From Flaccisagitta enflata (lineage: Eukaryota), in assembly GCA_965153355.1 (NCBI GenBank), contig OZ231126.1:36518001-36582000 (forward strand): a DNA stretch of 64,000 nt, read 5' to 3'. Position 1 is the stretch's first letter, and the number at the start of each line of letters is the position of its first letter. The notes under the pieces were generated by a model. It was not told where the DNA came from. It saw only the letters and a program-made list of their open reading frames with translations, and ran no database searches. Below are positions 30,432 to 36,400 of this stretch, piece after piece. A program made the position numbers and the translations under genes.

Positions 30432-33400
30432 GTAAACATTGGGTTCATGAGAGAGAGAGAGAGAGAGAGAGAGAGAGAGAGAGAGTTTTGTTTGGATAAT
30501 GTGGGAATGATTGCAGGAACAAACAAATGAGCAAATAATGTCGCGGTGAGGACGGTCCGACGGCTGAGATTTGATACCGTCTTTATCAATGAAAGAGTCA
30601 TGTTTGTGTTTGCGTGATTAAATAGCGAGACTAAAATATGATAACGTATGACGGAGAATGCAAGTCAAAAGGATCATTTTTAGTCGCGTGCACGCGACTC
30701 TACACCCCGCTTTGTCCGTCCGTCGGTCGGTTGGTTGGTCGGTCGGTCCCCATTTTACTTTTATTATCAATTTTATTTCTTTAAGTCATTTTAAGTCATA
30801 AGTAAACTAAGTCATTCTAAGTCATTCTAAGTCAATCTGTAAGTCTAGCACGCGACTTATAGGTGTTGGCCTTGTTAAAAAGGATAGGAATGTTCAATAA
30901 TTTGGAAAAAGAAAGGAAAAATGAAAGAAAAACAAAACAAGAAAGAGGTAAGGGTAGAAAGTGAAAGAGAGTAAGTAGGCAAGCAAGCAAGCATCTAATC
31001 AAGCAAGAAAGAAATAGAGAAAGAAATGAAGAAAGTAAGAATGAAAGCATGATAGCAAGAAAGAAAGAAAGCCAGAAAGCAAGAAAGCGAGAATGCAAGA
31101 GAGCGAGAATGCAAGAAAGCAAGAAAGAAAGAAAGAAAGAAAGAAAGAAAGAAAGAAAGAAAGAAAGAAAGAAAGAAAGAAAATAGTCGCAAAAGCGTTA
31201 GATGGTCAGCGGTACCCGTTGCCCCTATGAGAGTGTGTGGGTGTGTGGTGGTTAGAGGGGGTTAGAGGTTAGAGGGGGTCATAGAGTGATGTTTTTGGAA
31301 AATCATTACAGAACTCCGGATTCTGAGGGTTTATTAAATGTATAAAAGAGGGAAAAAAGTTTTGAGCCCATAGGTATTGAGGAATAATCCTCCAAAATGC
31401 GTCAAAGTTGAGGTGTTAAACCCGCGAAAATCGCGAAAATCGCCAAAATTACATGTTTTACTATTGTTTGTAAATTGAGTTTAATGGTAGTATTGATATT
31501 GGAATCATTCATAACATACCTCCTCTCACTCTTATTTTATCATAGAATAGTTCAGTTTATCATATTTTCCCATGTAGATAGCTAAAAAGTAGGTCCAGTT
31601 ACTACCAAAAATAGGCGAAAATCATCAAAATTGTCAAATTACCAGATTCTTGCATGTTTTACTTTAGATTGTTAATACAATCATTCTTTTCTAACAGGAT
31701 ACCTTTGATGAAATGATTACTTTGTGTCTTTTCATGTTCATATCTCCACAGTAGAGTACTACAATGTCCATTAAATTCAACAGGTTATACAAAGCTATTA
31801 TCACTTCAGTGCTCAATCTTCTGCCTCCAGGACTTGCAACCTGGCATAGGTGTTTTACTAAAGTTTTTTTTTGTTTTTTTTTTTTTTTTTTTTTTTTTTT
31901 TTTTAAAATTTTTTTTCTTTGGTTTTTTTTTGTTTTTTTTTGGTTTTTTTTTTTTTAGGTTTTTAATCAAATATCCACAAAAATGTGGCGGAATTGGGCC
32001 AAACTGATAAAATGTTTGGCGAAGCAGCTGATTTTTAACCACTAAGGAACAGAAGACAGAATAAATTTCATAGAACAATTGGGCAAATTGTAAAACATTA
32101 GACATTGAATTTTTTTTTTGTTTTGTTTTTTTTTTGTTTTTTTTTGTTTTTTTTTCTTTTTTTAATCAAATTTCCACAAAAAGTGGCGAAATTGGGCCAA
32201 ACTGACAAAATGTTTGGCAAAGCGGCTGATTTTTAACCACTAAGGAACAGAAGAAACAAGGTCAACAAACCTTAGTCGCGTGGTAATAAGGGTAATAAAG
32301 GTAATAAAGGTAATAAAGGTAATTAAGGTAATTAAGGTAATTGAGGTAATAAAGATAATGAAGATAACTAAGTACCTATATCTTCCTATAATTACCCACA
32401 TTTACCTACAACTACCTGTAAATACCTATAATTACTTACAATTACATTAAATTACCAAAAAATATCTATAATCACCTATAATTACCCATTTTTTCCTATA
32501 TTTCCTATAATTACCTCAATTTATAGTCCCAGACAACTTTTCTGACTTATATGATACAAATTACTAAAATACCTATATTTACCTATAATTACCTAAAATT
32601 ACCTATAATTACCAAAAATTACCTATGATTACCTTTAATAACCTTCAATAACCTTTAAAACGACTATAAAGCCTATATTTCAAAAATGTGACGGACCGAC
32701 CAACAGACCGACATAGCGGCTTCTAGAGTCGCGTTCACGCGACTAAGAATGAAAAAAGAACAATGGGGCAAATTGTAAAACATCCAACATTGAAGAATGA
32801 GGAATAAAAGGAATGATAGTAGATGAGCGGGACCTGTGCAAGATCACCAAGACCTCAACTACCATCTTCAAAATAAAATCAAGTTGTCCAATAAAAACCT
32901 TTGAGAAAGTTGAAAAAATTTCATATCCAAAAATCATTTTTAAAAAAATGCCTTGCAAAGGTTTTTATTGGAGATTTCTCAAAGTCTTTTCAAGGTGAAT
33001 TTCAGGAATTTGGTTGGGATTTGACCTGACCATGTGTCGCCTTCCCACTTTCCCACGCCATAAACAACATCCCAGAAGCGATTACCAAAGAACTGATAAC
33101 CAAGACCATCAAGTGCCAGAGATGATTCCTCATCAAGTATAACTGAATGAGTTGAACCTAGGCGATATTTGTTTTCCTTAGGGCAGAAATTGATCCCACC
33201 TTTCCTCCCCTGCTGAGAGATGAATCCATCTTTCTTGATGTTGTTGACAGCGCTTGTGTTGTGAAGAAGAGGGCAAAGCTGTTGAAAGGCCTCTTTTCCC
33301 AGGAGGAAGTGGCCAGGAGGTGCCAGTATTTTGATGCTGTGACCTCCAAGAGCGGCAACTCTGACAGTCACGGTGGTGTTGGGATGTAAATATTCAAGCG

Positions 33401-36400
33401 CCACAAAGCGCCTCTTCTTTTCTGTATCATACTCAGGGCTCACAGCTCGCAAAATTTTCTCGATGGGTACACCAAGTGATACCTCAAGAGCTGAGATTGG
33501 TACTGACCCATCTTGCCTTGAGTATTTCCCCTCAGGCATATTGTGACGTAAGAAGAACGCTATTTTCTTTGAGATCTGCATGCCTTCAGCAATTGGCAGC
33601 TGGGCCAGTGGATCTTTTTCGTCTTCCCTTACCCTCTTAAAGGCCAACACTTTTTCCAAATCTTGGCTAACCTTTTTAATCAGTGAGACCTGAGGAGGTT
33701 GGGGGCAGATCGAGCAGCTTTGAAGCCACAAACTAAGCTCCTTGACTGATCAGGCTTCTGGGCCAGAGCTATGAAGCTGATCTAACTCCTCTTGAAGTTT
33801 GAGCTGATTTCTTATGAGAATTTGGCCAAAGTTCCTCATTGCTACTCGTTCTTTGGTCTGCCTAGAGCGTTTCCTTGCAGTTTTCCATGGGACGTGTTTT
33901 GTTTCTTCTGCCATGGTCAAAGGTTTTTGCCAAAGTCTCTTTCTGAACTCTTTAAGAACTCTTTATTTTGTGTGTACTACTTCCAGCTTAGGACATAAAA
34001 AAATTCAAAGACAGTGCAGAAACAGTGTATCAAATTAGTCCTCTTAGTCGTTTTGGGGGAAATTTTTTATCCAATTTACTTTTGTAAGAGGTGTATTGAA
34101 ATCACCTCTGTCTATGTGGTTACAGGAATGCAATCCTTTCCACTCCGCTCTTAGTAGTTTGGGAGATACAGACTGATAAAGATTTCATAAAAAAAAATTT
34201 TTTTTCTCCAATTTACTTCTGTAAGAGGTGTTTTGAAATCACTTCCGCCTATGCGGTTTTGGATATGCAACCCTTATCACTCAACTCTAAGTCGTTTAGG
34301 AGATACACACCGTTGAAGATTTCACAAAAAAAAAAAAAAATCCAATTTACTTCTGTAAGGGATGTTTTGAGATCACATCAGTCAACGCCATTTCAAAAAT
34401 GCAATCCTTTTCATTCAACTCTTAGTAGTTTGAGAGATACACACCATTAAATAATTCAAAAAAAATTTTTCCAATTACTTTTGCAAGAGGTGATTTTAAA
34501 TCACTTCCGTCTATGCCGTTCCGGGTATGCAATCCTTTTGAGTCAACTCTAAGTTGTTTGGGAAATACAGACCGTTAAAGATTTCACTGACAATTTTTTT
34601 TCCTATTGACTTTTGTAAGGGGTGTTTTGGAATTGCATCAGTCAGCGCTGTTTCAAAAATGTGATTCTTTTCTTTCAACTCTAAGTAGTTTCAGAGATAC
34701 CGACCGTTAAAGGTAACAATATTTTCTCATCCAATTTACTCCTGTCAGTCATGAAAGAACTTGTTTGAAATCAACATTCTACAAATATTTGGCCAGATAA
34801 CCTTAAATTTCTGAAACAAAATCAAGCTTAATCCTCTGAATGTAGATTAGTTAAGATAGAAATAAAGCATTTTACCTGATACAAAATTTAATGAGTTGGA
34901 GAAACCATGCTGTTTAAATGAAATTTTCAAACTGAAAGAAACAAACCAAACAACCATGGCAAAATCATTGAGATCCAATGAGCATCAGATCATTGGATTC
35001 TCTGCCCCTCTCCCCAAAAATGTCCTTCCTACAAAACTGGATGTGGTCAAGTACATGCAACTATGCAAAGACGACCTTGAACTTAAGACCGGTCGGAAGA
35101 AACACCCAGTAACCTCATTCGCTAAACCAGTCATAGAAGAACTTTTAGCTCTTTGGCAAAAAGCTTCAATCCCCACCATCACTGAGAAGGGAGTTGAAAA
35201 ACCGCTCATCAAACTCTGGCAAAACTCCTATCTTGGCATGAGAAATGACTATGCAAAAAACGAAGTTCAAGAGGCTAACCAGAAGCTTTTTGACATTTGT
35301 GCCTGCAAGTGCAAGCAGATCCCTTGCACTCAGGCAAAATGCGTTTCTGAGAACTGTGATGGCATCCATTTGGATTGCAATTGTGAGTCCCAAAGAAAGA
35401 TTCCAAAGCGGGAGATCGAATTTCTTTTTGACCAAAGAGGCCCAAGGAAGATGATCATGTCTGGTTTAGACCAAAAAGTCACACTGAGTCTACAAAGGTC
35501 CCAAAAAAAGGCAGATGCTTTTGAGGCCCAACAGGAAAGGGAGAGAAAGCGGATAGAAGAGGAAGCAGCAAACAATGCAATTGCCAATCAGGAGTTTTTT
35601 GCAGAGGAAGCTGAGGTGGATCCTGGTGAAAAGGAAGACCCAGATTTTGTTCAAGATGCTTCAACCTTGGCACAAGGGCCAAAGACACGGAACACTCACC
35701 CACTACCAAAAACTGGTGCAGCCTGTGACAGATGGGGTATTTCAAGCAAAGCAGCTGCAGATATTGTGAACTCCTTTGCAATTGACATGGGCCTCTTGAC
35801 AGAAGAGGACAAAGCCACTGTTGTAGTGGACAAGGCAAAGATAGATCGTTGGAGAAAAAAAGGGCGAACTCAAGCCAAAGCCGAGCAAAAAAAGACAATC
35901 GAAACCTCAAAAACCTCTGGGATTTACTTTGATGGTAAAAAGGATCTCACATTGACTAAAGTGTTGAAAGATGGAAAGCCATACCAAAAGAAAGTCATTG
36001 AGGATCATTATGTCATGATAGGAGAACCAGACAACATCTATTTGGGTCATGAGGTTCCCCACTCTGGTCATGGAATCAGCCTTGGCCTGAGAATCTTCCG
36101 GTCACTGAAGGAAAAAAATTTGGCAGCAAGGATGAGAGTAGCTGGTGCTGATGGTTGCAATGTTAATGTTGGCAACAATGAAGGGGCATTGGTTTACCTC
36201 GAAAAGCTTTTAGGAATGCCGCTTCATTGGTTCATTTGCATGCTGCATGGGTGTGAATTACCATTCAGGGAAATTGTTCGGGCGAAAGATGGTGGTACTA
36301 CCGGGCCACATTCCAGGGAAGGTCCCATTTGAAGCACCTTGGATGATAAACTCACAGAGTTGGATGTGGTCAACTACCAAAGCATTCCTAACCCTGATTT

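Follow-up and report, generated by a model that had tools for sequence, protein, structure and literature searches.

The 64,000-nucleotide window analysed here, from Flaccisagitta enflata (assembly GCA_965153355.1, contig OZ231126.1, positions 36,518,001 to 36,582,000), contains a hAT/hATm-like DNA transposon of 7,516 bp at 31270..38785, with terminal inverted repeats (TIRs) and ends reading 5'-TAGAGGGGGTCAT. Two genes are arranged head-to-head within it: a Tpt1/KptA-like accessory gene of 311 codons on the minus strand (32979..33914) and a DDE transposase of 804 codons on the plus strand (34956..37370). A preliminary description of this DNA had treated an open reading frame (ORF) at 32979-33581 as a Tpt1-like domain, without its context. 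Our main finding is that this frame forms the 3' part of a conserved accessory gene, the second gene in one clade of cut-and-paste DNA transposons of hAT/hATm-like type; the gene encodes a Tpt1 fold and is under purifying selection. The earlier reading was right about residues at catalytic positions and about a distinct lineage, but it missed the transposon, and it missed that the copy in the window is a pseudogene, with one nonsense codon in each of its two genes.

The motifs first described are real, but the methionine at 33581 is internal (residue 112) and the gene starts at 33914. An N-terminal helical extension (33582..33914, minus strand; helices 13-89 in an AlphaFold model), with a basic cluster that may act as a nuclear localization signal, precedes the Tpt1-fold catalytic region with its RNA lobe and NAD lobe (32982..33581, minus strand; residues 112-311), which is the part covered by the earlier frame. 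Basic clusters in the N-terminal part occur in 17 of 25 relatives, a count that has no shuffled control. In the window copy, codon 55 of the Tpt1-like gene is a premature TGA (33750..33752, minus strand), which is open in copies L021, L023 and L024; the transposase, with motifs FDGK at 35928, GADG at 36144, CMLH at 36237 and AVE at 37197, is broken by a nonsense codon at 36330-36332 (plus strand). Sister copies have uninterrupted frames of 311 codons for the Tpt1-like gene and open frames of 817-981 codons for the transposase. Over 6,055 bp, the window element is 97.9% identical to the intact copy L023, whose two genes both have open frames.

A search of the 794-Mb genome, in which 150 of 309 candidates were scored and 40 loci were fetched, demonstrated that the gene belongs to a repeated element. 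All 150 scored candidates were matches, with families at approximately 98, 65, 35 and 30% identity, and the relatives are multicopy and fall into at least five families spanning 30-98% identity. A transposase match lay within the same 10 kb in 34 of the 40 fetched loci, and the layout was the same in all families. The ends could be delimited on TAG in 27 loci (the other 13, which had no paired ends, were dropped), and the target duplication was exactly 8 bp in 20 of these 27 copies and had at most one mismatch in 22. The window copy itself has no target-site duplication, its flanks being TTAGAGGT and ACCCTCGA. Both frames are open in five copies from three families (L023, L029, L030, L032 and L052), and copies of family B differ by only 1 base in 867, so activity is recent. 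Seen from the transposase, 20 of 35 hits with at least 45% identity lay within 6 kb of a cargo match, as did none of the 41 more distant hits, and the cargo-bearing transposases cluster in a quick tree (SH-aLRT 94, just below the starred level). The remaining 15 close hits were fetched; none aligns to the first 224 transposase residues and three keep a 3' remnant of the cargo, a pattern that fits internal deletion.

Some loci show rearranged or unusual forms of the element. L036 (G000:C4:67993300-68003299) is an inverted pair of family-B elements with their Tpt1-like genes facing each other, and L040-L044 are copies of a multiplied non-autonomous derivative in which the 3' part of the cargo is fused back-to-back with the 3' part of the transposase. 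A single very divergent and broken cargo copy (L062/L065, 7249-8100; G000:C9, ~48.517 Mb) sits between imperfect TAG-starting inverted repeats with no transposase match nearby; its R-N-G-I-H motif keeps the second His, and its lineage is otherwise found only in public data. Finally, a distant hAT-like transposase without a Tpt1 gene has, 2-3 kb upstream, two ORFs that look ankyrin-like by eye (L090, 1025-1705 and 2009-2482, plus strand).

Purifying selection acts on the Tpt1-like gene as it does on the transposase. In the comparison of families A and B, the proportion of non-synonymous differences (pN) in the cargo is 0.22 and that of synonymous differences (pS) 0.72, giving a ratio of non-synonymous to synonymous rates (dN/dS) of ~0.10, which is only rough because dS nears saturation; the transposase gives 0.14. 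Families C and C2 gave 0.17-0.20 for the cargo and 0.10 for the transposase, and within families dN/dS was 0.34-0.57. At deep splits the cargo evolves faster, with dN between families A and C of 0.8-0.9, compared with ~0.33-0.35 for the transposase. Separately, for families A/B, C and D (L023, L029, L047, L078 and L052), the cargo tree joins C with D, whereas the transposase tree joins C with A/B, which suggests a cargo swap or a rate shift. Were the gene Pack-type cargo, taken up passively as a host fragment or retrocopy and now in decay within the element, the broken state of the window copy and of many others would be expected, and an old host origin is not rejected by the tree test given below. 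However, intact cargo frames of 289-320 codons persist in families with near-saturated synonymous sites, dN/dS is 0.1-0.2, one layout is shared by all families, and 139 public clusters match at E<=1e-10; we therefore regard passive carriage as extremely improbable and the gene as almost certainly a selected transposon accessory gene. The more specific case of a neutral Pack-type capture close to a host gene is contradicted both by these dN/dS values and by the stem branch of the transposon clade, described below.

Several other features complete the element. The left TIR (31270..32857, plus strand) has a core of ~0.9 kb and inner subterminal repeats, and is interrupted by a 488-bp insertion (32257..32744) that is absent from L023; the right TIR lies at 37631..38785 (minus strand). 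The insertion is itself a repeat with AGTCGCG...CGCGACT ends, like nearby repeats around 30680-30860. The spacer between the divergent start codons (33915..34955) contains imperfect repeats of ~120 bp and is presumably a bidirectional promoter. Outside the element, a Ser-rich open frame of 561 codons at 28750-30435 (plus strand), with no Pfam match, may be a host exon.

The family extends beyond this genome. A profile search of 1.84 billion representatives returned the 139 clusters mentioned above, 51 of them at E<=1e-30; among the longer matches listed, the first canonical Tpt1 appeared at E=7e-11. Three public proteins have best identities of only 57, 49 and 38% in this genome, so the family is present in other genomes. 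Four pairs of public cargo and transposase records have longest contigs of equal size (5068, 4746, 4388 and 4878), with trees that agree for one pair, which is indirect support for cargo-transposase linkage in those genomes. Near-identical sequence occurs in marine metatranscriptomes: three runs from a single study yield contigs that span the gene, two of them with an open codon 55, and the same contigs cover the 3' half of the transposase in a pattern as from deleted DNA copies. A scan of JGI-type metagenomes found two contigs, each of ~1.1 kb and too short to reveal the gene's surroundings. No member of the clade was confirmed among 26 pattern matches in IMG/VR or found in GenBank phages, a scan of prokaryotic genomes with P0218 gave no match, and the ESM Atlas yielded only Tpt1-family leads, all under 0.9.

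Profiles and structure comparison both lead to Tpt1. The window protein matches PF01885 at E=1.3e-4 with 22.6 bits, below the curated cut-off of 26 bits; a precomputed PF01885 match is present in 5 of 19 close relatives, and a search of the PDB with a single sequence returned chance matches and no Tpt1. A 15-sequence family profile, on the other hand, retrieved yeast Tpt1 (7YW4; E=4.5e-8), its LRH, KxR, GHS, HxT and R all in register, and hhalign against 19 canonical Tpt1 proteins gave a probability of 98.5% over 176 columns. Judged by these alignments, the window protein is a true Tpt1 homolog. An AlphaFold (AF2) model built on an intact sister copy (pLDDT 88) found human TRPT1 in Foldseek at E=2.5e-9, all listed matches with E <0.01 being Tpt1, and aligned with mouse TRPT1 over 185 residues (Z 18.7, root-mean-square deviation 2.3 A). 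The predicted fold is thus two-lobed, with the RNA lobe and the ADP-ribosyltransferase (ART) NAD lobe shared with Tpt1/KptA.

Two TRPT1 genes that contain introns and carry the canonical motifs are also present in the host genome. These paralogs, L067/L070 (G000:C8, ~74.46-74.48 Mb) and L068/L069 (G000:C6, ~63.72-63.73 Mb), group together with one further relative (97/94). The named relatives of host TRPT1 are animals, which, taken with the marine metatranscriptome sequences, suggests that the host is a marine animal. We built two trees, one of 57 rows (9 viral rows were dropped as empty) and one of 54 rows (11 were thinned out and 1 was empty), in which the 'TE' label on database rows is by homology only. 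The transposon proteins form a single clade (100/100), whose stem measures 2.1-2.7 changes per site; in the tree it lies on the side of the eukaryotes and giant viruses and is separate from the two host genes. This bears out the earlier suggestion of a distinct lineage rather than a recent retrocopy, and it points to a gene captured long ago from the TRPT1 of a eukaryote or of a eukaryote virus. The proteins are not nested beside the host genes, but separation from the host lineage in the deeper past is less firm: a topology joining the clade with the host genes was not rejected by the approximately unbiased (AU) test (p=0.26), so that ancient descent from the host's own TRPT1 lineage is neither shown nor rejected. 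A sister relation to two viral contigs (82/83 in the 57-row tree) disappeared once more viral rows were added, and we reject it.

What, then, might the intact enzyme do? The motifs FFLRH, KKRRF, AALGGHS and HNT named earlier are all present in the translation of 32979-33581, and the proposed Arg-His-Arg-Arg set does fall on catalytic positions, with R123, H124, R169 and R237 aligned to yeast LRH, KQRF and SRN. On the minus strand, the Arg123-His124 codons occupy 33543..33548 (R123 33546-33548, H124 33543-33545), Lys167-x-Arg169, equivalent to yeast Lys69/Arg71, 33408..33416 (K167 33414-33416, R169 33408-33410), His218-Asn-Thr220, the HGT-motif equivalent with its NAD+ ribose contacts, 33255..33263 (H218 33261-33263, T220 33255-33257) and Arg237, equivalent to yeast Arg138, 33204..33206. 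In a 60-row family alignment, counting only rows with a residue at the column concerned, R123 (40/42), K167 (52/52), R169 (50/53), H218 (58/59), T220 (56/58) and R237 (51/53) are near-invariant, and R251 is Arg in 41 of 51 rows and Lys in six. The tetrad is complete in the window protein, as it is in the A/B lineage, but it is not invariant across the family: the H124 column has His in 20 of 41 rows and Trp in 16, and Trp, Asp, Lys, Glu or Ser together make up 21. Canonical loci almost always have the Gln of NQGH (151 of 156), where the family has Gly (54 of 57 rows). The motif changes listed in the preliminary description are family-wide and not decay of the window copy.

Mutational work on Tpt1 offers a way to interpret this pattern. 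In TkoTpt1, R17A, H98A and R118A gave no product, whereas H18A, K63A, R65A, Y77A, R136A and H137A formed 5'-ADP-ribosylated DNA without the final product (PMC12678800); Runella H17A, R64A and R119A mutants likewise accumulate the intermediate (PMC6097658). The residues essential for any product in TkoTpt1 are the equivalents of R123, H218 and R237, which are kept here. Those whose mutants stop at the capped intermediate include the positions matching H124 and the Gln of NQGH, both changed in the transposon family; Tyr77/Gln78 is presumably the NQGH Gln position, going by the equivalences in PMC6333775 and motif spacing. Matching family conservation to these mutants, the residues for step 1 of the reaction are kept and two helpers of step 2 are changed. 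The earlier idea of a shift to end-capping fits this pattern. The intact product is probably catalytically active and, if it is, capping is a somewhat likelier outcome than full removal of a 2'-phosphate.

An ordinary internal RNA 2'-phosphotransferase that aids host or element RNA repair would agree with the full tetrad of the A/B lineage and with the tolerance of Gln78Ala-type changes (PMC6333775). However, the two canonical host genes mean that a housekeeping need does not explain retention, the element has no RNA ligase partner, and the His is essential in vivo (PMC6097658, PMC10415124) yet absent in half of the family; we consider this role very unlikely.

Excision of hAT elements leaves ends with 5'-phosphates. 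Our favoured reading, held tentatively, is that the enzyme caps the 5'-phosphorylated DNA ends of transposition intermediates. The intact product would be a nuclear, NAD+-dependent ADP-ribosyltransferase that performs mainly Tpt1's first reaction step: a terminal phosphate held by Arg123, Lys167, Arg169 and Arg237 and NAD+ held by His218, Thr220 and Arg251 would react to leave a stable 5'-phospho-ADP-ribose cap. The targets would be the excised element ends or integration gaps, and the cap would shield them against nucleases and premature end-joining. Canonical TRPT1s are reported to cap 5'-phosphorylated DNA and RNA in vitro, and such caps resist phosphatase, their cellular role being described as speculative (PMC8385414). 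Put more generally, this clade of animal cut-and-paste transposons may have domesticated a Tpt1 for dedicated end-capping, with ADP-ribose added to 5'-phosphates on the intermediates of their transposition or on silencing RNAs of the host, a proposal that we hold with the same caution; the odds that DNA rather than RNA is the target seem barely better than even.

Argonaute and PIWI proteins require a 5'-phosphate for loading. An active enzyme could serve as an RNA-directed counter-defence, either by capping 5'-monophosphate RNAs (small-RNA guides or precursors, or cleaved transcripts of the element) or by removing or blocking 2'/3' terminal phosphates and so altering RTCB-dependent excision of the transposon from mRNA. 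The conserved active-site residues are the same as those for DNA capping, TRPT1 also caps 5'-phosphorylated RNA (PMC8385414), some Tpt1s remove terminal 2'/3' phosphates (PMC6573784), and RTCB-based SOS splicing is described as countering DNA transposons in animals (PMC13247085). Furthermore, the faster divergence of the cargo and the tree conflict over family C are what a gene in conflict, or one that had been swapped, should show, and the gene is dispensable in related elements. On the other hand, dN/dS between close families indicates purifying and not positive selection, and the basic N-terminal cluster may direct the protein to the nucleus. In our judgement, RNA counter-defence is rather unlikely, though it is the alternative to which we give most room.

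Several observations weigh against the DNA-capping interpretation. The Tpt1-like gene is missing from related hAT-like elements of this genome (0/41 by search; 0/5 among those fetched), so it is not needed for the chemistry of transposition. The second His of the NAD lobe, part of the H-H-hydrophobic ART triad, is Asn in 48 of 53 rows and His in one; the middle Gly of the HGT motif, whose His and Thr bind the adenosine ribose of NAD+, is kept in 1 of 59 rows; and in the eukaryotic SGxR donor loop the Arg is kept (41/51, plus 6 Lys), preceded by Tyr, in a shorter loop in which SG is replaced. Mouse and human His36/His41 mutants are reported to lose capping entirely (PMC10415124), yet Trp takes this position in the 16 rows noted above. 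The Runella Gln78 mutant (Q78A) is fully active in both steps (PMC6333775), so loss of the Gln alone does not imply arrest at step 2, and the Lys and Arg65 equivalents, likewise step-2 residues, are retained in the family. As to expression, no reads fell on the ORF in ~6% of one poly(A) raw-read run whose species is uncertain. The replaced tetrad His, the lost second His, Gln and donor-loop SG, the very long stem branch and the mammalian His mutants would also fit a pseudo-enzyme, a non-catalytic partner of the transposase that binds nucleic-acid ends or NAD+/ADP-ribose. However, the phosphate cage and the His/Thr pair for the NAD+ ribose are near-invariant across 25-60% identity, and Trp may be able to take over the stacking role reported for the tetrad His (PMC12678800); a purely binding role therefore seems improbable, more so than RNA counter-defence.

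Elements of the hAT superfamily are generally one-gene systems; here a whole clade retains a further gene, for an enzyme, with selection acting on it as strongly as on the transposase. Both the two-gene hAT-like transposon variant and its divergent Tpt1 subfamily appear to be new. In the full-text literature, with Repbase, Dfam, subscription papers and supplements such as the hATm alignments of PMC6004678 outside the scope of the search, we found no report of a Tpt1 gene in a transposon; the string 'transpos' is absent from the main text of a survey of viral NAD+ systems (PMC9503650), and the available sections of PMC6431247, PMC7955679 and PMC8721813 contain nothing on Tpt1 in transposons. 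Models of what ADP-ribosyl caps at DNA and RNA ends do in vivo are speculative, as are those for TRPT1 in animals whose tRNA splicing does not depend on it (PMC8385414). A transposon that has kept and reshaped this enzyme is a natural system that can be read out clearly, by the rate of transposition with or without the catalytic residues, and the natural His/Trp variants may separate the two reaction steps. If end-capping is correct, a selfish element would be using nucleic-acid ADP-ribosylation in its life cycle, which would give this modification a selected role in animals; the enzyme could likewise be a sign of a new conflict between host and transposon over the ends of nucleic acids.

Compared with canonical Tpt1/TRPT1/KptA (PF01885; mouse 7YW2, human 7YW3, yeast 7YW4, Thermococcus 9LD3), the transposon proteins share the fold and have the Arg, Lys, Arg, His/Thr and Arg in register. 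They differ in having ALGGH for ANQGH, H[NE]T for HGT and RxGG[IV]N for RxHxH, in an added basic helical N-terminus of ~110 residues, and in genes that are intronless, multicopy and transposon-encoded.

The CMLH motif of the transposase is one that we take to be the CxxH of hATm type. With hATm, as described in the available text of PMC6004678, the elements share the 8-bp target-site duplication, TAG termini, long TIRs and a DDE transposase with CxxH. The TIRs are ~0.5-1.4 kb here, compared with 417-575 bp reported for hATm, and the termini are TAGAGGG, TAGGGGG, TAGGGGA, TAGATGG or TAGAGTG, whereas the exact hATm heptamer TAGGGTG was found in 0 of 27 copies with ends placed on TAG. Neither half of the window transposase matched the hAT dimerization domain PF05699 at E<=1. 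Because this exact end and PF05699 were not found, we call the element only hATm-like; none of the 37 listed transposase homologs has an informative name. The second enzyme gene, divergently oriented here, has no counterpart in that part of the hATm description (PMC6004678).

Tpt1 domains on mobile elements have precedents among viruses, since KptA domains are reported in jumbo phages, sawfly baculoviruses, Bodo saltans virus, a nidovirus and a picorna-like virus (PMC9503650). The sampled viral domains, however, keep the canonical motifs and group apart from the transposon clade. A further parallel is AACRNL (PMC12957317), a Crinkler-like mono-ADP-ribosyltransferase of fish that is spread by neighbouring hAT/mariner elements and is proposed to aid transposon spread; in both systems an ADP-ribosyltransferase gene moves with hAT-type TIRs. 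AACRNL is diphtheria-toxin-like, has the protein targets EZH2 and TRAF6 and hitch-hikes on adjacent elements, whereas the gene described here has a Tpt1 fold and lies inside autonomous elements as a fixed part of them.

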